64,000 nt of DNA, taken from contig DAOLCW010000004.1 in NCBI GenBank assembly GCA_035327665.1, positions 2,598 to 66,597 on the forward strand, written 5' to 3'. Source of the stretch: Kiritimatiellia bacterium. Lineage in GTDB: Bacteria > Verrucomicrobiota > Kiritimatiellia > CAIVKH01. The notes below the pieces were generated by a model. It did not search any database and was not told where the DNA came from. It worked only from the letters and a program-made list of their open reading frames with translations. This document shows, piece by piece, positions 30,601-62,666 of this stretch (position 1 is the stretch's first letter; each line of letters opens with the position of its first letter). A program made the position numbers and the translations under genes.

Positions 30601-31196
30601 TGCAAGCCATCGCTGATCACCAGCACCGCGTTGTACTGAAGCATTGACGAAATCTCGGCTTTGTAGGTTCGAATCTGGGCGTAAGCATCCCAGATCGTGG
30701 TGTCCTCATCCGCCGCGTTCTTTAACTCGATCAAACCCAAGGGCAAACCGTTCACGAAGACGATGAGGTCCGGTCGCCGGTTGTGTTGCCCCTCAATCAC
30801 TGTGAATTGGTTCACAACGAACCAGTCGTTCGCCAGCACATCCGTAAAGTCGATCAGCCAGGCCTTGTCGTGTTTGATGCTGCCATCAGGTCGGGCATAC
30901 TCAACATCCACCCCGTCGCGCAGCAACTTGTGAAACGCCCGGTTCGTCTGCACGAGCGACGGAGTCGCCAACCGCAAAACTTTCCGCAACGCCTCCTCCC
31001 GCGCCTCCCCGGGAACATCTGGATTCAAACGCCCGATCGCCTCACGCAGACGCCCCACCAAAACCACGTCCCCAAATCCATTCCGCTCCGAGGACGCTTC
31101 ACCCGGCGCAAGTTGCGGCCCGTGCCCGGTCGCATAGCCAAGATCCCCGAACCATTCGAGGGCGGCGTCTTCGACGATGGATTCGTTGAGGGTCAT
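27636..31196 (-). CDS. hsdR: type I restriction enzyme R subunit HsdR carrying an in-frame DUF559 (Vsr-like endonuclease) domain insertion
   Basis: N-terminal PD-(D/E)xK ([12 protein letters not shown]), helicase Walker A (TQGSGKS), DEAH (IADEAH), C-terminal HsdR domain; insertion ...[30 protein letters not shown]...[15 protein letters not shown] is DUF559-like. Confidence 0.9.
30098..30140. repeat. REP/MITE-like palindromic element, copy d (in hsdR)
   Basis: gcccctcatccccggcccttctcccggtggaagaaggg; imperfect inverted repeat cccttctccc/ggaagaaggg. Confidence 0.6.
30493..30535. repeat. REP/MITE-like palindromic element, copy c (in hsdR, opposite orientation)
   Basis: ccctctccccctgggagagggctggggtgagggtgg; palindrome ccctctcccc/gggagaggg. 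Confidence 0.6.
31157..31190. repeat. 34-bp direct repeat, copy 1 (hsdR start region)
   Basis: cgagggcggcgtcttcgacgatggattcgttgag identical to 32358..32391. Confidence 0.9.
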
Positions 31197-32260
31197 GGTT
31201 GGTCGCGCTCCGGCGGCAATTCTTTGAGCAAACGATCAAAGTCCGACTCGAACAACCGGTCCTGCACGATGCGGTATTTCTCGAATTCGCTCTCCGCGTG
31301 TGCTTGGGCGATTTCGGCGGTGACTTTGCCGGCATCGTGCAGGATTTCGCGGTCAGTCGCGGCAATGAAGCGGTTGAGGCGGGTTTCCCAGTCCTGCATG
31401 GTCATGGGAATCTCACGCAGCGCCATGTCCTCGGCAATATCCAAGTAGGCGGAAACGAGCCGCTGGAGCTGCTCCATTTCGTTTTCCGTCAGGTAGTTCT
31501 TTGCCACAACCACATCGAACTTCTGGATTTTACCTTTGGGCGCGTCCTTCCAGGTGGTCAGGCCCATGCGGTCTTTCGCTGCATCGGCGCGAGCGACGAT
31601 GACCTCGGCTGCCGTCTGGCCGTGGATGGCCCAGTGGAGCTTGTTCTGTACGGTGGCGAAGAAACGCTGCGTGGCGATGGCAGTGACGTCGTAATCGATG
31701 GAGGTCGCGTAAATATCCGTGATCTTCTGGTAGAACTTGCGCTCGCTTAGACGTATTTCGCGGATGCGTTGGAGTTGTTCCTCGAAGTATTTTTTGCCGA
31801 GGATCGAGCCGTCGTTCTTGAGACGCTCGTCATCCATCGCGTAGCCCTTGATGGTGAAGGATTCGATGATGCCGGTGGCCCACTTGCGGAACTGCACGGC
31901 ACGCTCCGAGTTCACCTTGTAGCCGACCGCGATGATGGCGGAGAGATTGTAGTGCTGGGTGTCGTAGGTTTTGCCGTCGGCGGCAGTTATTCGAAAATTT
32001 CGAATAACTGAACCGGCCTCCAGTTCGGCGTCGTCGAAGACCTTTTTGAGGTGGTAATTGATCGTGTGCGTCTCCACGTCGTAGAGCAGCCCCATCATCT
32101 TCTGGCTGAGCCAGACATTCTCATCGGAGTAAACCGCCTCGACGCCACCCTGCCCGCTGGCCGCCACAAAGGTCAGGTATTCCGCCGCCGAGGAGCGGAC
32201 GAGCGAGACTTCGTCCTTCTTCTTGGCGCGACCGCCCGGGGTGGGTTTCTTTTTACTCAC
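31193..32260 (-). CDS. rhuM: RhuM family virulence-like protein (common type I RM accessory gene)
   Basis: [15 protein letters not shown]...[43 protein letters not shown] matches RhuM; GTG start at 32260; stop overlaps hsdR start. Confidence 0.8.
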
Positions 32261-32317
32261 GGGTTTGTCCTCCTCGCGATTTGAACTCTTCGAGATTGCC
32301 GAATGGTTGCCCGCGAC

Positions 32318-32348
32318 TCCTCGGAAAGGGCCGGGGTGAGGGATGCCA
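32318..32348. repeat. partial REP/MITE-like element, copy e
   Basis: gggccggggtgaggg is the reverse complement of the ccctcaccccggccc arm of copies a and d. Confidence 0.45.
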
Positions 32349-32397
32349 CAGGCATTACGAGGGCGGCGTCTTCGACGATGGATTCGTTGAGTTTCAT
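32341..32397 (-). pseudogene. hsdR 5' remnant (first ~13 codons [13 protein letters not shown]) displaced by cassette insertion
   Basis: Compare hsdR N-terminus [16 protein letters not shown]; the remnant diverges after EDAAL into a REP-like element. Confidence 0.5.
32358..32391. repeat. 34-bp direct repeat, copy 2 (hsdR 5' remnant)
   Basis: Identical to 31157..31190; encodes [13 protein letters not shown] on minus strand. Confidence 0.9.
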
Positions 32398-33230
32398 TTG
32401 TCTTTCAACCACACCAGCGCTTCGGGGTGCGCCTTCCACGCCATGCCCAGAACATCGGCAAAACACACTGCCTCCTCCTTGCTGCCTGAAGCATAGAAGG
32501 AAGGCAGGATTCTCGGCAGACGTTTTCCCAGCAAATACGCCTCAACGTGGGCATTTTGCTTACGGGCGGTATTGATGGCCTTGGCTGCGGCTTTGAAGTC
32601 ATCCCGCAGCCACAAATCCAGAACCTTGCCCCAGGCAAAAACCATACTCAGCTTGGCTTCGTTGTATTGTTTGAACAGGCGCGCGGTTTGTTGAAGCCGC
32701 TTGAGAGCGAGCAGGGTCGGCAATAGATAATAGCGCAATCCCTGATTGTCGTTGGGATTCAACTCCAGAAGGGCCGTCCATTCCGCTGCAGCCTCTTCAA
32801 GATTGCCGGACCGGCGCAACGCTTCGGCCAAATCCGCCCGCGCCCGCATGTAGGGACGTGTTTCCATGAATCCCCAAAAGCTGCCTTTCAGATGCAAAAA
32901 CACCTCCGGCCCCAACTGGTGGGCAGCCAGCTCTACCAGCTTGCGCAGGACGTCAATGCGCTGCCTGATTGAAAGACCAAGATCGTGAAGCAAGACCAGC
33001 CAGGCATCAACATGGGTCGGATCCAGTTCCAAGGCATTTTCCAACATTGCGTTCTGATCCTCATTCGAACGCGCCTCCATCGCGTCGTAATACAGTTCAC
33101 GCGATGCCTCGCTCAACGGACGCGCCGGTTCGCCCAACGCCCGATCCAGCGTTTTGATGATCCCGGCAAAACTGTACCGGTTCCCCCCGTTGCCAAGCCC
33201 CCCCTCAATCACACGTAGTTGCATTATCAA
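32394..33230 (-). CDS. hypothetical all-helical (TPR-like) protein embedded in type I RM locus
   Basis: 278-aa ORF, good codon usage, no family recognised; stop overlaps ATG of hsdR remnant (ATGA). Confidence 0.5.
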   Translation of the reverse strand: MIMQLRVIEGGLGNGGNRYSFAGIIKTLDRALGEPARPLSEASRELYYDAMEARSNEDQNAMLENALELDPTHVDAWLVLLHDLGLSIRQRIDVLRKLVELAAHQLGPEVFLHLKGSFWGFMETRPYMRARADLAEALRRSGNLEEAAAEWTALLELNPNDNQGLRYYLLPTLLALKRLQQTARLFKQYNEAKLSMVFAWGKVLDLWLRDDFKAAAKAINTARKQNAHVEAYLLGKRLPRILPSFYASGSKEEAVCFADVLGMAWKAHPEALVWLKDK

Positions 33231-33351
33231 GACTCCTCATTTGCGGATAATCGATTAGCGATCAGCGTGGCAGAACTCATAACCATCTTTGTCCCTTCAG
33301 ACTTCAGGGAAGATTAGTACAGATTGCGGTGTTCGACCATTAAGAAGGTAC

Positions 33352-34773
33352 TCATGCCGGAACCTCCTTTTCGACCTCCGCCACACTCAACTCCCCGCTC
33401 AGCAGCTTCGGCAACAACGTGTCGCGCAGGGTGGCGAGGGTGCGGGATTGGTGGAGGTTGGCATGGATGCGGTCGAGCATTGGTTGAATGATCCGCGTGA
33501 AGGCGGCGGCGATGGGTTTCGACGGCACGGCGACCTTGAAGGAACTGATGTCGCTCCAGTTCGTTCGCGGCATCTTGGTTCCAGTGGATGCGAGATCGGT
33601 GAATTGAATCAGTTCGTCGCTGCTTGCGTGGCCGAGGAGGAACCCGAACCACTCGGGGCTTTTCGGTGCGAGGACGAGGATGTCGGTGGAGCATACGCCA
33701 TCGAACGGGGCGACGCCGACTTTGTGGAAGTAAGGCCGCAGCTTGCCGAAGAGGATTTCGCCTTTATTGAACGCGGACTTGCCGCTCGCCACGTCGGCGG
33801 AGTCGTCCCAATCGCCGAGCGCGATGCAGCGACGCGGCATGTGTTCCAAGGCGATGTAGGGCGTGTTCGGTGCGATGTCGCCGGGCTGGACGCCGCGCCG
33901 CGAGTTCGTGCCGATGTCACCGACTGTTCCCACCGTCCATCCTTTGGGAATGTAACCGAGGGGTGAGTCTTCCAAGTGCTCGGGAAAGAGGGCGGCGATG
34001 GCGGGGTCTAGCGCGAAGCGCCCCTCTTCCCCGCCCCTTCTCCCACTGGGAGAAGGGTGGCCGGCAGGCCGGGTTGAGGGTTGATTCCGATCCATGTTCC
34101 GCCGAACTGGATCGAAATCAATAAACCAGCTCTGGAACAGCGCCCGCGCCATCCCCTCCAGCGTCTCGTTCATCCGCCGGTTCAACTCGATATTGTCATC
34201 GAGCGTGCCGAGTATGTGGGCGATGCGTTTTTGGATGGGGAGGGGTGGGAGTGTGAGCGGTGTGTTGCGAAGAATACCAAGGTTAGTGTGTGGAACGCCG
34301 GTTTGGATCGCATTCTGTCGAATGTAATCCTGCTGCTCCGCGCTGGTGAAGACGTAGTAGAGAAACACGGTATCTGCCTTCTCGGCATCGACCGTGAGCT
34401 TCATCTGGCTCTGAGAAATCAGGTATCTGTCCACGCCCTTCTTTGGCACTATGGCGACTTGGCCAAGCGTGCCGCGTTGAGTGAAAACTATGTCTCCGGG
34501 TTTCGCGCAGTTTGAGGAAAGAGATTCGGCCTTCTCTGGCGTGACATAAGCGAACTCGCCATCGACCCAACGGCCATGGCCCATGTTCGTTCCGCGAATG
34601 ACGGGGACTCCCGCAGGCACATAGTCTTTTGAGACCAAGTCAGAGCCGAACGGACCGCCGACGAGCGCATTTCGAGTCTTTACGGCGAGTTCGCCGACGG
34701 TGCAGTCAATGAACGCTTCAGTCGCCATACCCCAGCCCCCTTCCTCCTGCGCACTGCTCGCTATAGCGAGCAT
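33352..34773 (-). CDS. hsdS: type I restriction-modification specificity subunit HsdS (with in-frame palindromic-element insertion in central conserved region)
   Basis: Two TRD halves, central conserved LPPLPIQKRIAHILGTLDDNIELNRRMNETLE and C-terminal LPKLLSGEL repeats; extra segment NQPSTRPAGHPSPSGRRGGEEGRF coincides with element copy b. Confidence 0.82.
   Translation of the reverse strand: MLAIASSAQEEGGWGMATEAFIDCTVGELAVKTRNALVGGPFGSDLVSKDYVPAGVPVIRGTNMGHGRWVDGEFAYVTPEKAESLSSNCAKPGDIVFTQRGTLGQVAIVPKKGVDRYLISQSQMKLTVDAEKADTVFLYYVFTSAEQQDYIRQNAIQTGVPHTNLGILRNTPLTLPPLPIQKRIAHILGTLDDNIELNRRMNETLEGMARALFQSWFIDFDPVRRNMDRNQPSTRPAGHPSPSGRRGGEEGRFALDPAIAALFPEHLEDSPLGYIPKGWTVGTVGDIGTNSRRGVQPGDIAPNTPYIALEHMPRRCIALGDWDDSADVASGKSAFNKGEILFGKLRPYFHKVGVAPFDGVCSTDILVLAPKSPEWFGFLLGHASSDELIQFTDLASTGTKMPRTNWSDISSFKVAVPSKPIAAAFTRIIQPMLDRIHANLHQSRTLATLRDTLLPKLLSGELSVAEVEKEVPA
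34017..34085. repeat. REP/MITE-like palindromic element, copy b (in hsdS)
   Basis: agcgcccctcttccccgccccttctcccactgggagaagggtggccggcaggccggg; palindrome cccttctccc/gggagaaggg. Confidence 0.6.
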
Positions 34774-34929
34774 GCCGGTTTGCTTTGCTAGGTTGCTCCA
34801 GCCTTACATCCCCGGCGAGCCGGGTCGCAGGGGTCGCCTGTGTCCCATGGGACCGGTGCGACCCGGGGGACGGTTTGGGGCTGGGTGAGTCAGGGGGCGA
34901 CAGGGTCTTGAGTGAACTTCCGGGGGATT

Positions 34930-35586
34930 TCACGGGGGGCTTCTCCGGCTTTGCTTGGCCCGGGCTTGAAGGCGGGCCCGGGTCATGCGTTCGCGGAGAC
35001 CGCCTTCCTTCAAAAAATCCTGTTCGAGGCGACGGAGCTGCCGGTCGATCAGGTAATTGGCCTGGTTGATGAGGCAGATCAGGATATTGGCCACGGTTTC
35101 ACCGGGCCGGGTCTCGATAAACTCCCGGAAATGATCATACTTCAGATCATCGCGGGCGCTGAGCTTGCGCACATACAGCGCTTCCTTGCTGTTCTTGTCC
35201 CACGGGGTCAAATCCTGGTGAATCAGAAAATCCTCATAATCACCCAGCAACTCTTCCAAGCTCCCCCTCGCCACCGACGTCAGCTTAATCTCCGATTCTT
35301 TCGATGTCCCCGAAACCTGGCTCGCCTCGGCAATATTTTTGTTCCCGCTCCGCGCCGCCTGCACCATCTGGTCATGCGTCCGCGACCGTCGGCTGATAAA
35401 CCTGTCGCAGAACACCTTCGTCGCCCGGTAAATCACCTCCGTTTTCCGGTATCCGTGCAGATTGGCATACCCCCCATGCGGCGGGATAAACCCTTCTTCC
35501 GGCTCATCCCGGCTCCCGCGCGGCGATCGCCGCGCCCGATCCGTCCCCCGCGTCCCCCGGGTCCCATTCTCCCCGGAATCAGCCAT
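34930..35586 (-). CDS. four-helix-bundle protein (TIGR02436-like; frequent type I RM locus passenger)
   Basis: [12 protein letters not shown] and [16 protein letters not shown] match the family; overlaps hsdM stop by 8 bp. Confidence 0.65.
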
Positions 35587-37270
35587 ACCCCAACCCCTTC
35601 AAATTTTCCCGGATCGCTGCCTCCAGCCTCGCCGATTCCGCAAACTGTCCATCCAGCTCGGTCACCAGCCGCTTCATCTTCACCTCAAACGGCTCCCCGT
35701 CGTCCTCGACCGCTTCCGCTCCGACATACCGGCCCGGAGTAAGCACATAGCCATGCGCGGCAATTTCGGCGGTGGTGGCGGACTTGCAAAAACCCGGCGT
35801 ATCGGAATAGGACAAATGGGACGCGTGGGACCGATCCCCACGCCAGGCATGGTAGGTCGCTGTGATCTTTTCCAGATCGGCATCGGTCAGTTCTCGGTGG
35901 ACCCGGTCGATCAGCGTGCCGAGTTTGCGGGCGTCGATGAATAGCGTTTGCTTCCTTCGGTCGCGCAAACGCCCCTCACCCCCAGCCCCTCTCCCACTGG
36001 GAGAGAGTTTCCCGCCTGATTTGTCGCGGGAAATAAACCAGAGGCAGACGGGAATCTGCGTGCTGTAAAAAAGCTGTCCCGGCAAGGCGACCATGCAGTC
36101 CACGAGGTCGGCTTCGATCAGAGCTTTGCGGATCTCGCCTTCGCCGGACTGGTTCGAGGACATGCTCCCGTTGGCGAGAACGAAGCCGGCCATGCCCTGC
36201 GGCGCGAGGTGGTGGATGAAGTGTTGGACCCAGGCAAAGTTCGCGTTGCCCTTGGGCGGGACGCCATACAGCCAGCGCACGTCGTCGTCCTTGCGGAACC
36301 AGTCGGAATCGTTGAACGGCGGATTGGCGAGCACATAGTCGGCGCGGAGGTCGGGGTGGAGATCGCGGCGGAAGGTGTCGGCGTGTTCGGGACCGAAGTC
36401 GGCCTCGATCCCGCGGATGGCGAGGTTCATGATCGCGAGGCGCCGCGTGGTGGCATTGCTCTCCTGCCCGTAAATGCTAATGTCCCCCACCCGCCCACCG
36501 TGGGACTCCACAAACTTCTCCGACTGCACGAACATCCCGCCCGACCCGCAGCAGGGGTCATAGATGCGTCCCTTGTAAGGCGCCAGCATTTCCACCAGGC
36601 AGCGCACCACGCAACTTGGGGTATAGAACTGTCCCCCGTTCTTGCCTTCGGCCGAAGCGAAGCGGGTCAGAAAATACTCATAGACCCGGCCGAGCAAATC
36701 CACCGAACGGTGCGAGGGCAACGGAGCGGTTTCCAGGACCCCGGCCGCCTCACCGGCCCCGAGGTCGGGTGGGAGGTCGGCCTTGGCCACATCCACGCCG
36801 TCCGAGGACGGAACAAGGGTGATGGTCCCGATCAAATCAATCAACTCTCCCAAGCGATGCTTATCCAGGGCCGGACGCGCGTAATCTTTGGGGAGGACGC
36901 CCTTGAGGCGCGGATTGTCCCGTTCAATGGCAACCATGGCGTCGTCGACGATTTTGCCGATGGTCGGCTGCTTGGCGCTGTTCTGGAGGTATGACCACCG
37001 GGCGGCGGGCGGCACCCAAAACACATTCTCCGCCTTGTATTCGTCCTGATCTTCCGGATCAGCCCCCTCGTAGTCGCCCTTCCCCAACAGCAGTTTAGCC
37101 CGATGCTCCTCGAACGAATCGGAGATGTACTTCAGGAAGATCAACCCCAGCACCACATGCTTGTACTCCGCCGCGTCCATATTGTTGCGGAGCTTGTCAG
37201 CGGCAAGCCAAAGCTTGGCCTCGAAACCGATGGTAGCCGTCGATTTTTCAGTTTTGCGTTTAGCGGCCAT
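35579..37270 (-). CDS. hsdM: type I restriction-modification DNA methyltransferase subunit HsdM (with in-frame palindromic-element insertion)
   Basis: HsdM N-domain ([13 protein letters not shown]), NPPFN catalytic motif, AdoMet motif (DPCCGSGGM); extra [18 protein letters not shown] before [10 protein letters not shown] coincides with element copy a. Confidence 0.9.
35968..36012. repeat. REP/MITE-like palindromic element, copy a (in hsdM)
   Basis: aacgcccctcacccccagcccctctcccactgggagagagtttcccgcc; palindrome cctctccc/gggagag. Confidence 0.6.
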
Positions 37271-37428: not shown

Positions 37429-37800
37429 ATGAACACACGACGCGGAGAACTGGAAGCGCGGATTACCGAAGCGATGATCAAATTCGAACGGGAATTCATG
37501 GGCCGCGGACCCACCGAAGCCCGGACCTACCTGATCGATGACATGGTTCTGGTGCGCATGAAGGGCATCATCACCCGGGCCGAACACCACCTCGCCTCCG
37601 CCGATCCCACCGGGCGCGGGCGCGACCTCGTCAAACAAAGCCGCACCGAACTGATCGAAAAAGCCCGCCCGATGCTGAATCAATTGATCCAGGACACCCT
37701 CGGGGCCTCCGTGGTCAGCCTCTACACCGACATCTCGGTAAAATCCGGGGAACGCATGGTGTTGTTCACCCTCGACCGAAAACTTTCCCTTCCCGCTTGA
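37429..37800 (+). CDS. DUF2294 (MpsC-like) family protein
   Basis: Internal ATG at 37429; RGELEARITEAMIKFEREFMGRGPTEARTYLIDDMVLVRMKGIIT...VSLYTDISVKSGERMVLFTLD matches my recollection of the DUF2294 consensus. Confidence 0.65.
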   Translation: MNTRRGELEARITEAMIKFEREFMGRGPTEARTYLIDDMVLVRMKGIITRAEHHLASADPTGRGRDLVKQSRTELIEKARPMLNQLIQDTLGASVVSLYTDISVKSGERMVLFTLDRKLSLPA

Positions 37801-38003
37801 CAACTCGTCCCTGATCCTTAATTCTCACCCCCAAGTTAGCAATCAAACGGCTCGGGACACTGTCTTGGTCCGGTGGGTTGCTGGCGAAGAGAAACGTGTT
37901 GCAAGTTCCGGCCGAGCCCCCGGGGGAGCGGTTGGAAAGTGAGGCTGAAAGCGTCCATGATGGATGGTTCAGTCTTTTTTTTATGCCGAAAAGGAATGCA
38001 AAC

Positions 38004-39911
38004 ATGAAGTTAAAAGATATCGAGTTCGAAATCCCGTCCGCCCTCCAGGAGGTCCTCGCCGCCTGTCCCAGCTACACCGTGGCCCACAACAAGACCGAAC
38101 TGTTCAACCTCGCGATTCGCGATGCCGTCAACGGCATTCACGAAGTCGCCTACGACGTGCCCGGAAAGGGCCGGGTGGTCGAAGTTGAGGTGTGCCGGGT
38201 CAAGAACGGCATCGCCGCCAACTACACCGAACCCTACATGCGCCGCCGCGATCCCGACTGCATGGTGATTGCCGATGAGCGCCCGACCGACAAGCCCCGT
38301 TTCAATGAGCTTTACGGGAAGGATTTCGACACCCTTCGTGCCGAGACCTTCGAATGGTTGAAGACCCAGGAACTCGCGTTGTTCCCGTTCTTCGCCGGGG
38401 CTCCCGGTAAAGGGGCCGACGCGCTTGTGGTCGCCCCCGCCAATGCGGGCTTCTTCGCCCTCGGCCTCGCCTTGCTCCAAGGCATTCTCGACGCCGACTC
38501 GGTCCCCCACAACTTCAACCCCAAAGCCGTGATCTACGTGGCCCCGGTCTTCCGCCATACCCATTTCAATGGCAAGCAGATGGTCGTCCACAACCGGCGC
38601 GACAACCGGCATGAGTTGTTCAGCTACAACCTCTATCCCGGACCGAGCGCCAAGAAGGGGATCTACGGCGTGCTCCTCAACCTCGGCGAACAGGAAAAAT
38701 GGGTCACCGCCCACTGCTCGACCGTCCAGGTCATCACTCCCTACGCGAACAAAATCAGCATCATGCATGAAGGGGCGAGCGGCGGCGGCAAGAGCGAAAT
38801 GCTCGAGCAGGTCCACCGCGAAAAGGATGGGAGTCTCCTCCTCGGCGAGAACATCGACACCGAAGAAAAGCGCACCATCGTGATGCCCCGCAACTGCGAA
38901 CTGCGCCCGGTCACCGATGACATGGCCCTCTGCCACCCCTCCCTCGCCCGCCGCGACGGCCGCCTCGCCCTCATGGACGCGGAGCGGGGATGGTTCGTGC
39001 GGGTAAACCACATCACCAAGTACGGGATTGACCCCCACCTTGAAGAGATGACCATTCATCCCTCCGAGCCCCTGCTCTTCCTCAACATCGAGGCCCAACC
39101 CGGCAGCACCGCCCTCATCTGGGAACATATCCAGGATGAGCCCGGCAAACCCTGTCCGAATCCCCGGGTCATCATTCCCCGCAAGGCGGTGCCCGGGATC
39201 GTCAACGGCGCGGTATCGGTTGATGTGCGGAGCTTCGGTGTGCGCACCCCGCCCTGCACCAAGGAGAAGCCTTCCTACGGGATCATCGGGATGTTCCACC
39301 TCCTCCCCGCTTCCCTCGCATGGCTGTGGCGGCTGGTCGCTCCCCGCGGCCATGCCAATCCCAGCATCGTCGCCACCGAAGGCATGAGCTCCGAAGGCGT
39401 CGGTTCCTATTGGCCCTTCGCCACCGGGCGGATGGTTGATCAGGCCAACCTGCTCCTTCAGCAGGTCCTCGACACCCCCAAAGTCCGTTACATTCTCTGC
39501 CCCAACCAGCACATTGGGGCGTGGAAGACCGGCTTCATGCCCCAGTGGATCGCCCGCGAATACATCGCCCGCCGCGGCGGGGCGAAATTCAGCGACGAAC
39601 AGGTCGTGGCGGCCCGCTGCCCGCTCCTCGGCTATGCCCTCAAGACCATCACCGTGGAAGGCCAGACCATCCCCAGCATCATGCTCCGGGTGGAATTGCA
39701 AAAGGAAGTTGGACCCGACGCCTATGATCTCGGCGCCCTCCAGCTCACCGAGTTCTTCCACTCCCAGCTCGAGAACTTCATTCACCCTGACCTGCATCCT
39801 CTCGGGAAGCAGATCATTGAGAAGTGTCTCGCCGGAGCGAGCGTAACCGAGTACGAAAAACTGATTCCCCACGCCTGCATCGATCGTGAAGACGTGGAGC
39901 CGGAGGAATAG
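38004..39911 (+). CDS. uncharacterised large protein with HprK/PEPCK-like P-loop (GASGGGKSE...LLLGEN)
   Basis: ATG at 38004 preceded by aaggaa RBS; central IMHEGASGGGKSEMLEQVHREKDGSLLLGENID resembles HprK (GDSGVGKSE..LEL...LV.DD) and PckA (GLSGTGKTTLS...LIGDDEH) kinase P-loops; no other domain recognised. Confidence 0.65.
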   Translation: MKLKDIEFEIPSALQEVLAACPSYTVAHNKTELFNLAIRDAVNGIHEVAYDVPGKGRVVEVEVCRVKNGIAANYTEPYMRRRDPDCMVIADERPTDKPRFNELYGKDFDTLRAETFEWLKTQELALFPFFAGAPGKGADALVVAPANAGFFALGLALLQGILDADSVPHNFNPKAVIYVAPVFRHTHFNGKQMVVHNRRDNRHELFSYNLYPGPSAKKGIYGVLLNLGEQEKWVTAHCSTVQVITPYANKISIMHEGASGGGKSEMLEQVHREKDGSLLLGENIDTEEKRTIVMPRNCELRPVTDDMALCHPSLARRDGRLALMDAERGWFVRVNHITKYGIDPHLEEMTIHPSEPLLFLNIEAQPGSTALIWEHIQDEPGKPCPNPRVIIPRKAVPGIVNGAVSVDVRSFGVRTPPCTKEKPSYGIIGMFHLLPASLAWLWRLVAPRGHANPSIVATEGMSSEGVGSYWPFATGRMVDQANLLLQQVLDTPKVRYILCPNQHIGAWKTGFMPQWIAREYIARRGGAKFSDEQVVAARCPLLGYALKTITVEGQTIPSIMLRVELQKEVGPDAYDLGALQLTEFFHSQLENFIHPDLHPLGKQIIEKCLAGASVTEYEKLIPHACIDREDVEPEE

Positions 39912-39916
39912 GACGA

Positions 39917-40882
39917 GTGGATTTCCAGCTCGTCCTCGACAACCTGCTGCAACCCCCCATCCTGTTCTTTATGCTCGGGATGGCGGCGGTTGCGGCAAGG
40001 TCCGACCTCAGTATCCCTGAAACACTGGTCAAGCTGTTCTCCCTCTACCTCCTGCTCTCCATCGGCTACAAGGGCGGAGTGAAGCTCGCCGAAAGCGGCC
40101 TCAGCATCGACGCCCTCAAGGCGGTGCTCGCAGGCATCGCCCTCTCTGCGGTCGTACCTGTTTACACCTTCTTTTTATTCCGGAAAAGGGTTTCGGTGTC
40201 GAACGCCGCCGCGATCGCCGCCACCTACGGATCGATCAGCGCGGTGACCTTTCTCACCGCAATGAACTTCCTCATCCGCATCGACCTCCCGTTCGGCGGC
40301 TACATGGTCGCGGTGATGGCCCTCATGGAATCACCCGCGATCATTCTCGGGGTGATCCTCGCCCGCAAGTTCGGGGACATCGCCTCGCCCAGCGTTAAAA
40401 AACGCGTGTTGGTCCGGGAGGCCCTCACCAATTCCTCGGTCTTTCTCCTCCTCGGAAGCATGCTCGTAGGGATGCTGAGCGGTTCTCGCGGCTGGGAAGC
40501 CATGGAACCATTTACCGACAACCTGTTTCAAGGGATGCTGTGCTTCTTTCTGCTGGATATCGGGATGATGTCCGCCCGCCAGCTCGGGGAAATTCGCCGG
40601 GCCGGATCGTTCATCGTGGTATCCGCCCTCGCCCTGCCCCTGTTTAACGGAATGATCGGCATGATCGTGGCCTACCTTCTCGGCATGAGTCCTGGCGACA
40701 GCGTGTTGTTCTGCATCCTCGCCGGAAGCGCGTCCTACATTGCCGTTCCCGCCGCCATGCGGAATGCCGTTCCCGACTCCAGTCCCGGCCTCTACACCGC
40801 GATGGCCCTAGCGATCACCTTCCCGCTGAACATTGCCATCGGCATCCCTCTCTACACCTGGGCGGTTACCACTTTCTGGTAA
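39917..40882 (+). CDS. SbtA-like sodium-dependent bicarbonate transporter family permease
   Basis: MDFQLVLDNLLQPPILFFMLGMAAVAA and IAATYGSISAVTFLTAMNFL parallel cyanobacterial SbtA (MDFLSNFL...SPTLAFLIGGMV; ATGGLFGAVSGSTMAAALTTL); 10 TM inverted-repeat topology; no SbtB (PII-like) gene adjacent. Confidence 0.75.
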   Translation: MDFQLVLDNLLQPPILFFMLGMAAVAARSDLSIPETLVKLFSLYLLLSIGYKGGVKLAESGLSIDALKAVLAGIALSAVVPVYTFFLFRKRVSVSNAAAIAATYGSISAVTFLTAMNFLIRIDLPFGGYMVAVMALMESPAIILGVILARKFGDIASPSVKKRVLVREALTNSSVFLLLGSMLVGMLSGSRGWEAMEPFTDNLFQGMLCFFLLDIGMMSARQLGEIRRAGSFIVVSALALPLFNGMIGMIVAYLLGMSPGDSVLFCILAGSASYIAVPAAMRNAVPDSSPGLYTAMALAITFPLNIAIGIPLYTWAVTTFW

Positions 40883-40892
40883 GCCGGCGGAA

Positions 40893-43800
40893 TCACCGCA
40901 GCGAGGCTTCCTTCCAGGCGCAATACAGAACCGGGGCCATCAAGGTCGTGAACACTTGGATCAGCATGCCCCCGAATGAGGGGATGGCCATGGGAATCAT
41001 CAAATCCGCCCCGCGGCCGGTCGAAGACAGAATCGGAATCAAGGCGAGGATGGTGGTGGCGGTGGTCATCATGCAGGGGCGGATGCGCTTCATGCCCGCA
41101 TCAAGGGCGGCGGCCCGGATCTCCTCGCGGGTGGACAGGTTCGCGTCCTTAAACCGTTGGTCGAGGTAGGTGCACATCACGACGCCGTCGTCGGTGGCGA
41201 TTCCGAACAAGGCGAGGAACCCGACCCATACCGCGACGCTGAGGTTGATGGCATGGACCCCGAAGAGGTCGCGGAGGTTGATCCCGAACAGGGCGACATC
41301 AAGGAACCAGGCCTGCGCGTACAGCCAGATCAGGATAAACCCTCCCGACCACGCCATGAAGATCCCCGCGAACACGAACAAGGTCACGGGAATGCGATGG
41401 AACTGGAGGTAAAGGATGAGGAAGATGATGAACAAGGAAAAGGGAACGACGAGGGCGAGCTTGCGGGCGGCCCGGAGCTGGTTCTCGTAGCTCCCGGCGA
41501 AGGTGTAGCTGACTCCCGGCGGGAGCTCGAGGTCACCGGAAGCGATCCGGGCCTGAAGGAGGTCGCGGGCTTGTTCAACCACCTCGACTTCGGCATGGCC
41601 GGGGTGCTTGTCGAACAACACATACCCGAGCAGGCGGGTGTCCTCCCCCTTGATCATGTCGGGTCCGCGCACATAGCGGATTTCGGCAACCTGACTCAGC
41701 GGGACCATCGCCCCGGAGGCGGTCGAAACCAACAGCCGCTCGAGGGCGTCGATGGAGTCGCGGGTTTCGCGGGCATAACGAACACGCACGGGATACCTTT
41801 CCCGGCCTTCGACGGTCCGGGTGACTTCGAGGCCACCCACCGCAACTTCAATTATGTTCATGAATTCCGCGACCGCGATCCCGTAGCGGGCCAGCGCGGC
41901 CCGGTCGGGATGGATTTCGAGGTAGGGCTTGCCGACAATCCGGTCGGCGATCACGGTGGCGGGGTTGATCGACGGCACCTCCTTGAGCGCTTCCTCGAGC
42001 AAGATCCCCGCCGCCTCAATCGCTTCGAGCGAGGGGCCGAGCACCCGCAACCCCATCGGCGCCCGCATACCGCTTTGAAGCATGACAATCCGGGCTGAGA
42101 TCGGCTGGAGCCACGGGGCTGAGGTCATGCCGGGGACGTGGCCGGCCCGGACGATTTCGTCCCAAATGTCGCGCGGCGAGCGGATGCCGGCCCACTCCTC
42201 GCGTTCGGGGTTGAGTTCGGGATCGAGGGCGGGACGCCACTGCCGGAACGGATGGCCACGCCGGTCGGGAATGAGTCGTCCCTCCTCGTCGCGCAGGAAC
42301 TTGCCCTGAACCACGTACGGCTCCCCGTCGAGGGCGGGAAGCGGATGGCCTGCGGCGTCGCGGAACAAATCGGTTTCCCGGGGGTCGTACGCGAAGGTCA
42401 GCCGCCGCCCCGAGGCGTCGGCGAGGAACTCATCCTTGTAGTTGATGACCGTCTCGATCATCGACACCGGGGCGGGATCGAGCGGGCTTTCCGCACGTCC
42501 GAGCTTGCCCACCGCGAGGTCGACTTCGGGGATGGCATAGAAGGCCATGTCCTGGATTTGCATGAGGTCGAGAACTTCGTTGAGCCCGGCATGAGGCATG
42601 GCGGTCGGCATGTAAAGGAAGGCCCCTTCATCGAGCGGGGGCATAAACTCGCGACCGAGTCCGGGGAAGGCATGATAGAGGGAAACCACCGGCTTCCATT
42701 GTCTGACCGAACCGGGAAGCCATCCGAAAAGCTTCGGGAAGCCGAGCCAGACCATCAGACCGAACACCATGATGAATCCGGGGATGAGCAGAAACGCGCG
42801 CTTGTGGTCGAGGCACCAGCGGAGGATGACTGGGTACAGCCGCTGGTACAACAGCAGCAGTCCAAGCACGGAACCGACCAGCAGACCGACCAGCAACGTA
42901 TTGCGGGCGATTCCGCGGTCGGGTCCGAGGGGCATCCAGTCATAAGCGAGTAAAACCGCCAGCCCGCCCGCGCAAAGGTAGGCCAAGATCCCCCCGCCCC
43001 CGGTTCGAGTTCGTGCAGACCGTCCCGATCGGAAAAACAGATGAGCCAACGCAGGCAGGATGGTCAGGGCCACCACCACCGAACCGAACAGCACGAAGGT
43101 CTTGGTGTAGGCCAGCGGCTTGAAAAGTTTGCCTTCGGCCGCCTCCATGGTGAATACGGCAAGGAAACTGACGATGGTGGTGGCGATCGCGGTCAGCACC
43201 GCCCCCCCCACTTCGGTCACCGCCCGGTGAATGATGTCGAGCCGGCGGGCCCGGTCCTCGCGGTCCGCCCGGTCGGCCTCGCCAAGGTGCCGGAGGATGT
43301 TCTCGGTAACGATGATCCCCATGTCCACGATGGTGCCGATCGCGATGGCAATCCCGGCCAGTGAAACAAGATTGGCATCGATGCCGAACTGACGCATCGC
43401 GATGAAGCATCCGAGCACGGTCATCGGCATCACAAGGGCGATGAGGAGCGAGCTGGCGAAATGCCGGACCATGATCAGGACCACAATCGAGGTCACGAGA
43501 ATCTGGGCGTACAACGCGCGATTCAAGGTCCCGAGGGTTTCCCCGATCAACTCGGAACGGTCGTAGAACGGAACGATGGTGACCTGGCTGATCCGTCCGT
43601 CGTCGAGGGTCTTGCGAGGAAGCGACGGGGCGATTTCCTCGATTTTCCGCTTCACATTCTGGATGGCGGCGAGGGGATTTTCTCCATACCTCACCACCAC
43701 CACCCCGCCGACCGCTTCCGTGCCCTCCTTGTCGAGAGCGCCCCGGCGGAATTGGGGGCCGAGTCCCACTGAAGCAACGTGATGCACGTACACCGGAACC

Positions 43801-44639
43801 CCATCCACCACCTTTACCACCGCTTGTTCGAGGTCAGAAACCGATTTGATGAACCCTACCCCGCGCACCGCATACTCCACCTGATTGACCTCAATCACGT
43901 TCGCCCCGACATCGAGGTTCGAAGCCCGCACCGCATCCACGACATCCATCAGGGTGACCCCCCGCAACCTCATCGCTCCGGGATCGACATCGACCTGGTA
44001 TTCCTTCACGTAGCCGCCGATCGAGGCGACTTCGCTGACTCCCTCGGCGGCGAGCAAGGCATATTTCACCGTGAAGTCCTGAAGGCTTCGCAGTTCTTGA
44101 AGATCCCAGCCCCCCGCCGGATTGCCGTCGGCATCCCGCCCCTCGAGGGTGTACCAGAAGACCTGGCCGAGGGCGGTCGCGTCGGGACCGAGCATCGGCT
44201 GGACCCCGTCGGGGAGGGTTCCCGTCGGCAGGCTGCCCAGCCGTTCAAGGATGCGCGAACGGGTCCAATAGAACTCCGCATCATCGTTGAAGATCACGAA
44301 GATGGTGGTGAAGCCGGTCATCGAGATCGAGCGCACGGTCTTGACCTCCGGCACCCCGAGCAGGGCCACGGTCAGAGGATAGGTGACCTGGTCCTCCATG
44401 TCCTGCGGCGACCGCCCCATCCATTCCGCAAACACGATCTGCTGGTTCTCCCCGATGTCGGGTATCGCATCCACCGGAACCGGATCGCGCAACTCGCGGG
44501 CAAGGTCCCAGTCGAACGGGGCATGAAGCACCCCTCCCACCACCAGCCCCGCCGCGAGCAGAAATACGACTAGCTTGTTTTCCAGACAGAACCGCAGCGA
44601 GGCATCAAGAACGGATCGCCGCTCAATGGGCGTGGTCAT
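40893..44639 (-). CDS. cusA: heavy-metal efflux RND transporter, CusA/CzcA family (oversized, ~1248 aa)
   Basis: ATG at 44639 (MTTPIERRSVLDASLRFCLENKLVVFL...) matches CusA start (IEWIIRRSVANRFLVL); 12 TM plus large periplasmic loops; extra ~200 aa relative to canonical. Confidence 0.85.
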   Translation of the reverse strand: MTTPIERRSVLDASLRFCLENKLVVFLLAAGLVVGGVLHAPFDWDLARELRDPVPVDAIPDIGENQQIVFAEWMGRSPQDMEDQVTYPLTVALLGVPEVKTVRSISMTGFTTIFVIFNDDAEFYWTRSRILERLGSLPTGTLPDGVQPMLGPDATALGQVFWYTLEGRDADGNPAGGWDLQELRSLQDFTVKYALLAAEGVSEVASIGGYVKEYQVDVDPGAMRLRGVTLMDVVDAVRASNLDVGANVIEVNQVEYAVRGVGFIKSVSDLEQAVVKVVDGVPVYVHHVASVGLGPQFRRGALDKEGTEAVGGVVVVRYGENPLAAIQNVKRKIEEIAPSLPRKTLDDGRISQVTIVPFYDRSELIGETLGTLNRALYAQILVTSIVVLIMVRHFASSLLIALVMPMTVLGCFIAMRQFGIDANLVSLAGIAIAIGTIVDMGIIVTENILRHLGEADRADREDRARRLDIIHRAVTEVGGAVLTAIATTIVSFLAVFTMEAAEGKLFKPLAYTKTFVLFGSVVVALTILPALAHLFFRSGRSARTRTGGGGILAYLCAGGLAVLLAYDWMPLGPDRGIARNTLLVGLLVGSVLGLLLLYQRLYPVILRWCLDHKRAFLLIPGFIMVFGLMVWLGFPKLFGWLPGSVRQWKPVVSLYHAFPGLGREFMPPLDEGAFLYMPTAMPHAGLNEVLDLMQIQDMAFYAIPEVDLAVGKLGRAESPLDPAPVSMIETVINYKDEFLADASGRRLTFAYDPRETDLFRDAAGHPLPALDGEPYVVQGKFLRDEEGRLIPDRRGHPFRQWRPALDPELNPEREEWAGIRSPRDIWDEIVRAGHVPGMTSAPWLQPISARIVMLQSGMRAPMGLRVLGPSLEAIEAAGILLEEALKEVPSINPATVIADRIVGKPYLEIHPDRAALARYGIAVAEFMNIIEVAVGGLEVTRTVEGRERYPVRVRYARETRDSIDALERLLVSTASGAMVPLSQVAEIRYVRGPDMIKGEDTRLLGYVLFDKHPGHAEVEVVEQARDLLQARIASGDLELPPGVSYTFAGSYENQLRAARKLALVVPFSLFIIFLILYLQFHRIPVTLFVFAGIFMAWSGGFILIWLYAQAWFLDVALFGINLRDLFGVHAINLSVAVWVGFLALFGIATDDGVVMCTYLDQRFKDANLSTREEIRAAALDAGMKRIRPCMMTTATTILALIPILSSTGRGADLMIPMAIPSFGGMLIQVFTTLMAPVLYCAWKEASLR

Positions 44640-46050
44640 GGCCGCCTCCTTCCACCGGGGCTCGTTCCGGCTCGATACCTTGAGCGCGCATCTCTTCAAG
44701 ATACCGTTCAGGATCGCGGAGAAACTCGTCGTCACAACCGGGACAACAAAAGTAAATGCGGTACCCTTGATAATCCACGAAGTCCTTGGGATCAATCCGT
44801 CCCCCGGCGATTGGACAATGGATCTGCGGACGCATCGCCGCTCCTTCCGAAGTCAGGCTCATCATCGACGGCTTGGCGAGGATTTGCAGGGACCCGTCGA
44901 TCCGCATGGCGCCCCGCGACACCACAAGCTCACCCGTCTCCAGTCCGTCGAGGATCACCACCTGATCCCCGGCCCGTGGCCCCACCCTCACCACCCGGCC
45001 CTCGAAGATCGATGGATCCTCGGGCGACTGGACATAAACCACGGCCCGTTTTCCGGTCTGCAGGACGGCGGTGGCCGGAACAAGCAGAACATCATCGGCC
45101 ACCTTCACATCCATCCGGGCCCGGGCCAGCATCCCCGGCTTGAGCGCGCCCTCGGGGTTCGGAAGGTCCACCCGGGCCCGGAGGCTCCGGGTTCCGGGAT
45201 CGAGATCGGCGGGAAGAAATGAAACCGTGCCGGTCCAGGTGGTTCCGGCCAAGGCCTCGACATCCACCAGCGCCCCCTCGCCACGTCGTACATGCTGAAG
45301 ATCACGCTCGTAGACATCAAACAAGCCCCAGATCACCGAGGTGTCGGCGAGCTCAAGCAGCCGGGCCCCCCGCATCGCCCACGCCCCTTCGCGAATCGCA
45401 AGATCCGTAACCACGCCATTCACCGGGCTGCGTACCGTGAACGTTTCGGGGACATCGCCGCCGCTGCTGCGGATGCGGTCGATCTCCGCCTCCTCCATAC
45501 CGAGCAAGAGCAGCTTGCGCCGGGCGGCCTCGGCGACCGGAGGCGACCCGGCTACCGCGAGTTCCCGGGAGGCGGCATACACCTCCGGACTGTACACCTC
45601 GGCCAGCGGATCGCCGGCCGCCACCGCCATGCCGGGAACGTTGGCATGGAGGACGCGGAGTTGTCCGTCGGCCAGCAGGACCACCTCGCGGACCCGCGCG
45701 AGATCATAGGCAAGTGTTCCGGCAACCCGGAGATCGGCCCGGGCTTCCCCCCGGACCACCGGAGCGGTTTCGATCCGGGCGAGTTCGCGGGCCGCATCCG
45801 ACATTTTCAGCGCCCTCGGACCGGCATCGGCGGCATCGTCACCGACCGGGATCAGGTCCATCGCGCACAACGGGCACAAGCCCGGCCCGGGTTGGCGGAT
45901 CTGCGGATGCATAGAGCAGGTGTAGGTCGTTTCCGCATCGCCGGCCCCGGCGACCGCATCGGAGCCATCATGGGATGAACGCAGCCCGCCGAGGCCATAG
46001 CCAAGGGCGAGACCGGCCAGCAGGACCCATAGGAGTTGATGTTTTTTCAT
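44623..46050 (-). CDS. cusB: efflux RND periplasmic adaptor (CusB-like) with N-terminal heavy-metal-binding domain and C-terminal YHS domain plus His-rich tail
   Basis: YTCSMHPQI...CPLCAMDL HMBD; membrane-fusion-protein core; IYFCCPGCDDEFLRDPERY YHS domain; ...GGGHDHAH tail. Confidence 0.8.
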   Translation of the reverse strand: MKKHQLLWVLLAGLALGYGLGGLRSSHDGSDAVAGAGDAETTYTCSMHPQIRQPGPGLCPLCAMDLIPVGDDAADAGPRALKMSDAARELARIETAPVVRGEARADLRVAGTLAYDLARVREVVLLADGQLRVLHANVPGMAVAAGDPLAEVYSPEVYAASRELAVAGSPPVAEAARRKLLLLGMEEAEIDRIRSSGGDVPETFTVRSPVNGVVTDLAIREGAWAMRGARLLELADTSVIWGLFDVYERDLQHVRRGEGALVDVEALAGTTWTGTVSFLPADLDPGTRSLRARVDLPNPEGALKPGMLARARMDVKVADDVLLVPATAVLQTGKRAVVYVQSPEDPSIFEGRVVRVGPRAGDQVVILDGLETGELVVSRGAMRIDGSLQILAKPSMMSLTSEGAAMRPQIHCPIAGGRIDPKDFVDYQGYRIYFCCPGCDDEFLRDPERYLEEMRAQGIEPERAPVEGGGHDHAH

Positions 46051-46059
46051 AAGAATACC

Positions 46060-62384: not shown

Positions 62385-62666
62385 TTCGGATGCCCCTTCG
62401 GTGAATGCATTATCACTTTCCTCATACGAGAGATGAAAGCGGCGCGGCTCAAGGCCATGGCACAACGGTTCATTCGGGGATGCTAAAGGCCTTGGGAGTA
62501 AACATCAAGTCCGATGTTACCAAGAGATGAACCGGTTTCCCTTTAAAATCACGGGGGGTTTCACCAATCCACACCCAGAGCGTGTACAGAACTAATCGCA
62601 CATCTCATACGGTCCGTCCCAACCGGCAAAAAGGGGGGGCAAACTGCCTTTCCAATGTATGCCAAA

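Follow-up and report, generated by a model that had tools for sequence, protein, structure and literature searches.

Non-autotrophic bacteria need CO2 or bicarbonate for a handful of essential carboxylations, and to our knowledge little is known of how they sense and respond to a shortage of either. Phosphoenolpyruvate (PEP) carboxykinase (PEPCK) uses CO2, not bicarbonate, as its substrate. In cyanobacteria, the permease SbtA is accompanied by SbtB. Architectural parallels to the locus described here are offered by antitermination in the hut operon and by the metabolite-binding ZTP riboswitch; in the HutP-type arrangement of Bacillus subtilis hut, a small regulator gene likewise precedes an RNA hairpin with an intrinsic terminator, followed by structural genes. 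In Staphylococcus aureus, cells require the MpsABC/DabAB pump to grow at ambient CO2, MpsAB does not depend on mpsC, which has no phenotype, and the mpsC gene follows a weak terminator; mpsC is reported not to be located together with mpsAB homologues beyond staphylococci (PMC6689103). Literature searches for DUF2294, the family of MpsC, and for DUF4914 (PF16260) retrieved no relevant paper on the former and none on the latter.

The locus was examined within a window of 64,000 nucleotides from a Kiritimatiellia bacterium. Three + strand open reading frames (ORFs) delimited by an earlier sequence-only reading were confirmed by Pfam matches: an mpsC-like gene (37429..37800; 123 aa; DUF2294, PF10057, E 1e-35), a DUF4914 gene (38004..39911; 635 aa; PF16260, 1050 bits) and a gene for an Sbt_1-family permease (39917..40882; 321 aa; PF05982, E 1e-111). 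NCBIfam holds no model for any of the three proteins. The DUF4914 gene starts at the ATG at 38004. A longer, TTG-initiated ORF (start 37878) is unlikely to be the true gene, since it would enclose a conserved hairpin and its terminator. Five nucleotides separate the DUF4914 TAG stop from the GTG start of the permease gene, whose Shine-Dalgarno sequence GGAGGAA sits within the 3' end of the DUF4914 gene; the permease is translationally coupled to DUF4914. The small DUF2294 protein is common to this locus and the S. aureus pump locus. Neither MpsA/DabB nor MpsB/DabA is encoded at the locus, and mpsC here stands before a conserved leader RNA, in contrast to S. aureus mpsC with its weak terminator upstream.

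By its matches the permease is a clear Sbt_1 member (Pfam score 373 bits versus a cut-off of 27) and a homologue of Synechocystis SbtA Slr1512 (7cye; phmmer E 6e-25), with bicarbonate as its presumed substrate by homology. It is ~50 residues shorter than cyanobacterial SbtA and is found without SbtB. As the sequence-only reading had it, no sbtB or other PII-like gene adjoins the permease gene, which is bordered by DUF4914 upstream and by a convergent CusA-type RND pump gene (cusA), ending at 40893, downstream. Also unlike the cyanobacterial system, the host is a heterotroph and the permease gene is co-transcribed with that of a carboxykinase-like enzyme. No carbonic anhydrase gene lies within the window. 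The permease slot is occupied in other genomes by an MFS, DUF3360 or DUF1576 protein; Sbt_1, OFA-type MFS, DUF3360 and DUF1576 proteins appear to be interchangeable permeases that may share one substrate.

The 635-aa protein, initially thought to belong to no recognizable family and to carry a P-loop as its only motif, is a full-length DUF4914 member according to both a Pfam HMM search and NCBI annotation, and it is PEPCK-like over its whole length. The kinase-type P-loop is present as GASGGGKSE (G257-ASGGGKSE-265), conforms to the kinase-1a pattern GxxGxGK(T/S), aligns with GLSGTGKTT of Escherichia coli Pck and is invariant across 97 DUF4914 homologues; S259, G260 and K263 are invariant down to members of 26-40% identity. 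DUF4914 has the two-domain PEPCK fold, comprising an N-terminal domain and a P-loop nucleotide-binding domain. A profile of the 97 sequences is colinear with E. coli Pck over a stretch that takes in R65, Y207, K212/K213, H232 and the P-loop, with hhalign pairing R81/R82, Y211, K217/K218 and H237 of DUF4914 with E. coli residues. D305/D306 (kinase-2) and R388 were assigned by eye from motifs, without superposition, as counterparts of D268/D269 and R333 in the retrieved E. coli sequence. The PEPCK metal and substrate ligands are all invariant or nearly so in the family, and the residues that remain invariant among members at 26-40% identity make up the PEPCK catalytic set. A soluble protein that has the PEPCK fold over its full length and retains the PEPCK catalytic residues, DUF4914 is most likely a nucleotide-dependent carboxykinase of the PEP-carboxykinase superfamily, as predicted here.

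Similarity to known enzymes is distant. Against the single E. coli sequence, hhalign gave E 0.002 at a probability of just 14%; the sole non-trivial match of the DUF4914 profile in the PDB was Thermus thermophilus ATP-PEPCK (1j3b), at a non-significant E of 0.34, and a single DUF4914 sequence matched nothing there. Global hhalign alignment with E. coli Pck was meaningless, and local alignment with alternatives yielded one good segment, which was kept, and one mis-registered segment, which was dropped after motif comparison by eye. Relative to ATP-PEPCK (PckA; Trypanosoma cruzi 1ii2, E. coli Pck), DUF4914 shows just ~17% identity, is ~100 residues longer, has ~30 inserted residues separating the P-loop from the Asp-Asp motif, and carries extra invariant Cys/His residues. 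It differs from GTP- and PPi-PEPCK (9e32, 8e1u) in having a classical NTP P-loop and shows no significant sequence similarity to them; PPi-PEPCK, at 1126 aa, is also of unlike size. Just ~135-155 residues align with HPr kinase/phosphorylase, a ~310-aa protein in which the kinase domain alone forms the catalytic unit. HPr kinase is not the best structural match of DUF4914, which, unlike it, has full PEPCK N- and C-terminal domains and the residues of the C4-acid/CO2 site; the DUF4914 neighbourhood contains neither HPr nor PTS genes. The family is unusually uniform, forming essentially one 50%-identity cluster that spans many phyla.

Between mpsC and DUF4914 lies a structured leader with a terminator, a feature overlooked in the sequence-only reading. 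A -35-like hexamer, TTGACA (37797..37802, + strand), overlaps the mpsC TGA stop and may belong to a promoter for the leader and DUF4914. TTGAC is invariant in nine Kiritimatiellia loci, and pairs resembling TTGACA/TTGCAA-N17-TAxxxT were read by eye in other phyla as well, in the stretch that separates mpsC from the motif; owing to a weak -10 in the window, the TTGACA site fell short of a full promoter in a consensus scan. RNAalifold analysis of the nine loci revealed a conserved hairpin (37902..37941, + strand), CA-AG-UUCCGGCC-GAG-CC..GG-GAG-C-GGUUGGAA-AG-UG, with two symmetric AG/AG internal loops. It is followed by an intrinsic terminator (37942..37982, + strand) consisting of a long GC-rich hairpin (37942-37975) and eight U. 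In helix 1, the leader helix, 94% of cells are paired and 5/13 pairs show compensatory changes; in helix 2, the terminator, 7/13 do, for 12/26 pairs over the alignment (A4). The whole-structure covariation score is 0.412 versus 0.221 in shuffles, with 0/500 shuffles reaching the score, and the window leader has an MFE z-score of -3.4. Conserved, covarying secondary structure in a 5' UTR is as expected of a cis-regulatory leader, and the hairpin and U-run directly 3' of the conserved element in all copies are as expected of an expression platform. Hairpin and terminator do not overlap in the window, and thus no antiterminator alternative is evident there.

No Rfam 15 family (4227 covariance models) matched in the window at E <= 1, nor in six related loci at the gathering score; matches at E <= 10 in one further locus (L087) were just spurious hairpins. 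Literature on ybcI- or purK/bicarbonate-linked and orphan riboswitches likewise yielded nothing relevant. The fold of MpsC gives no clear RNA-binding or ligand-binding assignment, and the protein has no sequence or fold similarity to HutP. MpsC is a candidate regulator of the downstream leader and operon.

Leaders in the same position were found in other phyla. A covariance model of the Kiritimatiellia leader (R1) gave matches in Nitrospiraceae (E 4.5e-6), Hydrogenedentales (0.003) and a Spirochaete (0.04), each lying between mpsC and DUF4914. The Clostridia/Spirochaete motif (alignment A6) has 95.7% of cells paired, and 0/500 shuffles reach its score; helix 3 has 3/3 compensatory pairs, and helices 1 and 4, fixed by the search pattern, carry no information. 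In the Clostridial motif the outer helix pairs UUGG, its 5' strand, with a CCAA that doubles as the start of the terminator stem. Tandem copies occur, and within one genome extra copies precede purK, DUF4914 and a P-type ATPase gene. All 27 distinct full-length copies in metagenomes have mpsC upstream, and the genes 3' of them are DUF4914, purK-purE-MFS, hyp158-adk or a permease. A further 22 metagenome loci from the pattern scan were treated as chance matches, their hits falling in uninterrupted sequence and lacking the 3' half or terminator. The Clostridial model (R2) misses the window leader; therefore homology of the two RNA types, which we do not claim as proven, rests on position, architecture and R1 cross-matches that are weak and partly driven by the generic terminator.

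Gene neighbourhoods were counted from tblastn and Pfam matches since longest-ORF calls picked antisense ORFs in GC-rich loci, such as those 3' of DUF4914 in L001 and L002, which were discarded on composition. PurE, PurK, Sua5, carbonic anhydrase or Sbt_1 is encoded <=6 kb from DUF4914 in 15 of 80 genome loci, versus a roughly estimated chance expectation of ~1. Clostridial loci are ordered mpsC - hyp165 - (adk) - DUF4914 - purK - purE - permease, and those of Maribellus and its relatives DUF4914 - class II-like purE (class by motif reading) - sua5 - beta-carbonic anhydrase. PurK, PurE, Sua5 and adenylate kinase (ADK) exceed NCBIfam equivalog cut-offs. About 60 of the 80 loci have no carbon-related neighbour, with DUF4914 apparently monocistronic, and the carbon link of DUF4914 is therefore facultative. 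A purely carbon-based theme does not cover some of the regulated genes: a Ca-type P-type ATPase, an OFA/lactate-type MFS transporter and nearby Mrp genes. The inorganic-carbon connection drawn in the sequence-only reading gains independent support from PurK/PurE, Sua5, beta-carbonic anhydrase and Sbt_1 in other phyla, whereas published work ties MpsC only weakly to carbon uptake. Conservation of the three genes as a trio did not hold up: mpsC is upstream of DUF4914 in ~16/80 loci, Sbt_1 is directly 3' in 2/80, and all three, with the DUF4914-Sbt_1 order retained, occur together only in two close relatives (L003 and L004).

With moderate confidence, we read the locus as a PEPCK-superfamily enzyme and an Sbt_1 bicarbonate permease placed behind a conditionally terminating leader, serving a response to inorganic carbon shortage in heterotrophs. 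DUF4914 and Sbt_1 would form a small operon behind the structured 5' leader and its terminator, with mpsC immediately upstream. DUF4914 would be a cytosolic, NTP- and Mn/Mg-dependent enzyme catalyzing PEP + CO2 + NDP <-> oxaloacetate + NTP, or similar carboxykinase chemistry on a close analogue of PEP/oxaloacetate; the permease, by homology with SbtA, would import bicarbonate to feed this reaction and other carboxylations. The leader would gate expression through conditional termination, either with MpsC bound to the hairpin in a HutP-like arrangement or with the RNA itself sensing a small molecule. In this scheme the fold, the conserved catalytic residues, the covarying RNA structure and the gene associations are observed, and we infer the substrate and reaction direction of DUF4914, bicarbonate as the species transported, the inducing signal and MpsC as RNA partner. 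In other phyla the mpsC-leader unit stands ahead of PurK/PurE, adenylate kinase, DUF4914 and interchangeable permeases, and Sua5 and carbonic anhydrase cluster with DUF4914; therefore the module resembles an inorganic carbon shortage response.

The sequence-only reading had proposed that DUF4914 regulates or energizes bicarbonate uptake. Acting through protein contact, it would replace SbtB or serve as an ATPase subunit, which we consider highly improbable. DUF4914 retains, beyond the P-loop domain, the full two-domain fold with substrate- and Mn-binding residues, which fits a metabolic carboxykinase and not a regulatory or energizing SbtA subunit. Sbt_1 is missing from its nearest relatives (L001 and L002, at 87% identity), identity remains 58-65% across phyla without a nearby Sbt_1 gene, adjacency is confined to the two genomes noted above, and the varied permeases in the slot argue against a specific protein partnership. 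As a whole, that interpretation is partly supported. A housekeeping PEPCK isoform that serves anaerobic heterotrophs in gluconeogenesis or anaplerosis, with neighbours of no regulatory meaning, would account for the fold and catalytic residues, for monocistronic genes with unrelated neighbours in most loci, and for very high conservation befitting a central enzyme. We think it unlikely given the recurrent clustering with PurK/PurE, Sua5, carbonic anhydrase, ADK and permeases well above expectation and the dedicated leader common to DUF4914 and purK-purE operons; moreover, at Pfam E values up to 10 the protein matches DUF4914 alone and neither PEPCK_ATP nor PEPCK_GTP, so it is not an ordinary PEPCK isoform.

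The prevalence of purK, purE and adk, the commonest partners under the motif, raises the prospect of a purine or nucleotide regulon, in which the leader senses a purine intermediate or adenine nucleotide, DUF4914 (de)carboxylates or phosphorylates a nucleotide-related substrate and the permeases import a precursor. Some Clostridial operons under the motif hold just purK-purE-MFS, and Sua5 makes an adenylate. Still, beta-carbonic anhydrase and an SbtA homologue fit purine salvage poorly, the carboxylation step alone represents the purine pathway, and the C4-acid/CO2-binding residues (equivalents of R65, Y207 and R333) are invariant, making such a regulon rather improbable. It would overlap with the carbon-shortage reading if the sensed molecule were AIR accumulating under carbon limitation. 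Very unlikely, in our estimate, is a cation or alkaline-stress module (Na+, Ca2+, pH) with an ion-sensing leader or MpsC, a Na+-coupled Sbt_1 and an incidental DUF4914. Mrp/Mnh antiporter genes do adjoin the module in four loci (L001, L002, L008, L085), the motif precedes the Ca-type P-type ATPase in two (L084, L087), tandem G-A internal loops often bind metal ions, and many carriers are metagenome-assembled genomes with CSSed/CS-Sed isolate names, which we take to denote soda-lake sediment; however, the Na+ and Li+ riboswitch families of Rfam gave no match and most regulated genes encode soluble ATP- and CO2-using enzymes.

Collectively, the carbon-shortage reading suggests an undescribed low-CO2 response at this Kiritimatiellia locus. 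The locus offers an extremely conserved, unstudied enzyme family that is structurally a PEP carboxykinase, and a candidate new cis-regulatory RNA associated with DUF2294/MpsC, a small protein without a function since it was named. Several cultured carriers of the module exist, among them Maribellus luteus, Caldicoprobacter guelmensis, Petroclostridium sp. X23 and Sphaerochaeta. A broader and doubtful proposal, advanced tentatively, is that MpsC and the leader constitute an unrecognized inorganic carbon attenuation system governing a low-CO2 regulon in at least 5-6 phyla, with DUF4914 as a fourth PEPCK class. If confirmed, that class would join the ATP, GTP and PPi enzymes of the PEP-pyruvate-oxaloacetate node, specialized in fixing carbon into C4 acids under a scarcity of inorganic carbon. 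The attenuation signal would then be CO2/bicarbonate itself or a metabolite, such as AIR, that builds up once carboxylation is stalled, and the pairing of MpsC with a leader would explain why mpsC lies beside the MpsAB carbon pump in staphylococci.

Pfam assigned each of the three same-strand ORFs, which lie exactly where the sequence-only reading had placed them, to a family. The ORF at 37429-37800 encodes MpsC/DUF2294 (E 1e-35), the middle ORF (38004-39911) encodes DUF4914 (1050 bits), and the third (39917-40882) encodes an Sbt_1 permease (E 1e-111). The middle 635-aa protein had been described as lacking any recognizable family, an error given that its DUF4914 match spans all 612 model positions. 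Identical 635-aa and 123-aa proteins were found in public Kiritimatiellia MAGs under the annotations 'DUF4914 family protein' and 'DUF2294 domain-containing protein'. The permease GTG start (39917) sits 5 nt past the TAG of the DUF4914 gene and is preceded by GGAGGAA. DUF4914 and the permease thus form a translationally coupled pair, located behind a terminator-containing leader. As proposed, no PII-like gene adjoins the permease, the next downstream gene being a convergent CusA-type pump; unlike SbtA/SbtB, this Sbt_1 member is without SbtB.

A genome scan using one genome per species detected 135 DUF4914 relatives, of which 80 loci with 58–87% identity to the query were retained. These carried Kiritimatiellia, Planctomycetota, Bacteroidota, Spirochaetota, Hydrogenedentota, Acidobacteriota, Chloroflexota, Bacillota and other labels. 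By tblastn of these loci with the window proteins, mpsC was upstream of DUF4914 in approximately 16, and Sbt_1 adjoined it in just two, the close relatives L003 and L004. The permease was absent from L001 and L002, the nearest relatives of the window locus, where apparent ORFs following DUF4914 look like antisense artifacts. The sequence-only reading had staked its three-gene bicarbonate-uptake module on co-occurrence in other genomes; with Sbt_1 beside DUF4914 in two of 80 loci, the module is not conserved as such.

The surroundings of the locus have features of their own. Directly upstream of mpsC is a type I restriction-modification system (hsdR, hsdS, hsdM; 27636-37270, reverse strand), and scattered among its genes are a RhuM-family gene, a '23S rRNA IVP' four-helix-bundle gene and one for a TPR protein. 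This block looks like a strain-specific insertion because L001 and L002 carry Mrp antiporter genes in its place. Its start coincides with a jump in GC skew, which is strongly negative across the window's first 28 kb (−0.15 to −0.39) and reaches about 0 near 28 kb; the jump could mark the edge of an island or a switch related to replication. Downstream lie a CusCBA-type heavy-metal RND efflux operon (40893-47325) with a CusB-like protein containing HMBD and YHS domains, and, a short way on, a MazE-antitoxin/Fic pair (47854-48479). A 1631-aa surface-type protein with SdrD_B, DUF7507 and DUF11 repeats (57570-62465, reverse strand) neighbors a gingipain-like Peptidase_C25 protein with a TSP3 repeat (62667-63890, reverse strand).

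An AlphaFold model of DUF4914 was built from a 97-sequence alignment (pLDDT 91, pTM 0.90). HprK/P chains scored only 7.1–7.8 against this model, with similarity confined to the P-loop domain. In its modeled structure DUF4914 is a PEP carboxykinase (PEPCK), and it is predicted to work as one, but is without a match to ATP- and GTP-family sequence models: no Pfam PEPCK model matched even at E 10, and the DUF4914 profile matched Thermus thermophilus PEPCK in the PDB at an E of 0.34, below routine significance. Using hhalign, profile residues 96–287 aligned with residues 62–260 of Escherichia coli Pck (E 0.002, probability 14%), pairing RRRDP with GRSPKD, NLYPGPSAKKG with WYGGEMKKG, AHCS with MHCS, and GASGGGKSE with GLSGTGKTT. 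Reading the sequences side by side further paired TDDMALC with GDDEHGW and PNPRVIIP with ENTRVSYP. An exhaustive search of 1.84 billion cluster representatives yielded only 824 DUF4914 matches, mostly fragments but including a few full-length members that are divergent. With members of 26–40% identity aligned, R80, R82, Y211, K217, K218, S259, G260, K263, E265, D305, D306 and R388 were invariant and H237 nearly so. By alignment and side-by-side reading, these are the predicted equivalents of E. coli R65, Y207, K212, K213, S250, G251, K254, D268, D269, R333 and H232, whose catalytic roles we take to be those in the PEPCK literature. We place DUF4914 in the PEPCK superfamily as a separate clade with retained catalytic machinery and an inferred substrate, and by our own, uncomputed estimate the fold assignment is close to certain. 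It is filed as a new clade and not as PckA because the ATP/GTP family sequence-model test failed and activity is predicted only. The family is unusually uniform. Members from different phyla are 58–65% identical, and, judging by the very few full-length representatives among the matches listed, almost every full-length protein apparently falls in one 50%-identity cluster. This uniformity points to a family that is under very strong constraint or that spread horizontally not long ago. In a Verrucomicrobiota MAG (L007), a 360-aa ORF downstream of DUF4914 (8054-9136) has the HprK-like P-loop GPKMSGKSTLL in translation.

Nine Kiritimatiellia loci share a conserved mpsC-DUF4914 gap, which is 203 nt long in the window. 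The stop codon of mpsC overlaps a TTGACA, after which comes a hairpin, CA-AG-UUCCGGCC-GAG-CC(loop)GG-GAG-C-GGUUGGAA-AG-UG, with two symmetric AG/AG internal loops and, directly 3', an intrinsic terminator with an eight-U run. The window leader folds with a z-score of −3.4. In the nine-sequence alignment 93.6% of cells are paired and compensatory changes occur at 12 of 26 pairs; none of the shuffles or slid registers approached the covariation score. The window leader had no match in Rfam 15, and no antiterminator alternative to its terminator was found. In our estimation, which is not a computed value, this leader is very probably a real, conserved element.

With a covariance model of the Kiritimatiellia leader (R1), the equivalent intergenic position gave matches at E 4.5e-6 in a Nitrospiraceae MAG, at 0.003 in a Hydrogenedentales MAG and at 0.04–0.3 in Spirochaetes. 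Gaps in Clostridia and Spirochaetes contain a sharper motif, UUGGAAGA(C/U)-N5-6-AARGGUU-loop-AACCAGU-N5-6-GUAAGCCAAU, followed by a terminator whose stem begins with the motif's own CCAAU. A pattern comprising the 5' two-thirds of this motif matched 51 metagenome loci, 29 of which extend to the full motif plus terminator and provide 27 distinct full-length sequences; the other 22, without the 3' half and terminator, look like chance matches. All 27 copies have mpsC immediately upstream, and downstream DUF4914, hyp158-adk, purK-purE-MFS, DUF3360-DUF4914 or an MFS permease. On these sequences 95.7% of cells are paired, with compensatory changes in all three pairs of the central helix and one pair of P1b; two helices set by the search pattern are uninformative for covariation. 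A covariance model of the Clostridial-type motif (R2) found more copies before purK, DUF4914 and a P-type ATPase inside single Clostridial gene clusters and weakly matched the Sedimentisphaerales version (E 0.007), but did not match the window leader. R1 made about 10 matches to Clostridial-type sites (E 0.001–0.6), with score partly from the generic terminator. In position and architecture the window leader corresponds to the Clostridial motif, and the two are likely, though not proven, to be homologous. We found neither an Rfam family nor a paper describing this RNA. Several copies can occur per Clostridial cluster, including one tandem pair, as in L084 (4179-4231, 6115-6167, 9858-9911 and 13889-13941) and L087 (9213-9267, 9333-9386 and 16287-16340), where some precede a Ca-type P-type ATPase and a 267-aa DUF4914 fragment gene. 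Group II intron domains (Rfam gathering-score matches) flank the L087 mpsC/DUF4914 cluster at 7205-7281 and 19244-19377.

In hutP, a regulator gene is followed by a conditional terminator. The mpsC gene is invariably directly upstream of the RNA motif, its stop codon less than 15 nt away in some Clostridia, and because this invariable placement resembles the hutP layout, we favor MpsC, by analogy, as the putative partner of the RNA. The data agree just as well with a metabolite riboswitch that sits behind a first gene. The AF2 model of MpsC is confident (pLDDT 92.8), with an alpha-beta-beta-alpha-alpha-beta-beta unit. Outside staphylococci, mpsC is reported as not collocated with mpsAB homologues (PMC6689103).

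Neighborhoods were read from Pfam-annotated contigs and by tblastn. Clostridia (Petroclostridium, Caldicoprobacter and relatives) have the order mpsC, a 160-170-aa protein without a Pfam match, (adk), (second mpsC), DUF4914, purK, purE and a permease of MFS, DUF3360 or DUF1576 type. Spirochaetes have mpsC-DUF4914-adk-MFS with sua5 convergent; Planctomycetes, mpsC-DUF4914-sua5-MFS-purE; and Maribellus, Draconibacterium and other Bacteroidota, HTH-cupin regulator-DUF4914-purE-sua5-beta-carbonic anhydrase. PurK, PurE, Sua5 and ADK scored above NCBIfam equivalog cut-offs, and the MFS protein above that for the OFA-family 'L-lactate transporter'. Clostridial PurE contains SAHR...AGGxAHLPG, presumably the signature of class I (with PurK, bicarbonate and ATP), and Bacteroidota PurE contains SAHK...AGMSNALSG, presumably that of class II (direct CO2). 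PurE, PurK, Sua5, carbonic anhydrase or Sbt_1 lies within 6 kb of DUF4914 in 15 of 80 loci from some six or seven lineages; since these are single-copy genes, we estimate a chance expectation of about one locus. What these partners have in common is that they use or supply CO2/bicarbonate in combination with ATP. In many operons of Clostridia and some of Spirochaetes, the first gene past the RNA motif encodes a 158–169-aa protein without a Pfam or NCBIfam match and without a counterpart in the window (L085 8153-8629, L087 9491-10000, L058 5504-5950). Mrp/Mnh Na+/H+ antiporter genes (Proton_antipo_M, MNHE and others) adjoin the mpsC/DUF4914 module in several genomes (L001 1-2965, L002 1-2961, L008 5-3749, L085 15121-19134), with MnhE of L008 ending 25 nt upstream of DUF4914 on the same strand.

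Elsewhere the same regulatory unit stands in front of enzymes that depend on bicarbonate or CO2. In the window, inorganic-carbon shortage would cause the leader to permit transcription read-through, the Sbt_1 permease would import bicarbonate, and DUF4914 would carboxylate PEP, or a compound closely analogous to it, with CO2; alternatively, the enzyme might run in the decarboxylating direction. Rivals were a regulator or energizer of the permease, set against a permease that seldom accompanies DUF4914; a plain housekeeping PEPCK, alongside approximately 60 of 80 loci with no carbon-related partner and a seemingly monocistronic DUF4914; a purine-centered regulon, recalling purK and purE; and a cation/alkalinity regulon. 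We consider carbon-responsive uptake and fixation, as an integrated explanation of the whole locus, an even call. Of the sequence-only reading, the observation stands and the interpretation is partly supported. Neither the chemistry nor the regulation is categorically new; their combination is undescribed and open to experiment.
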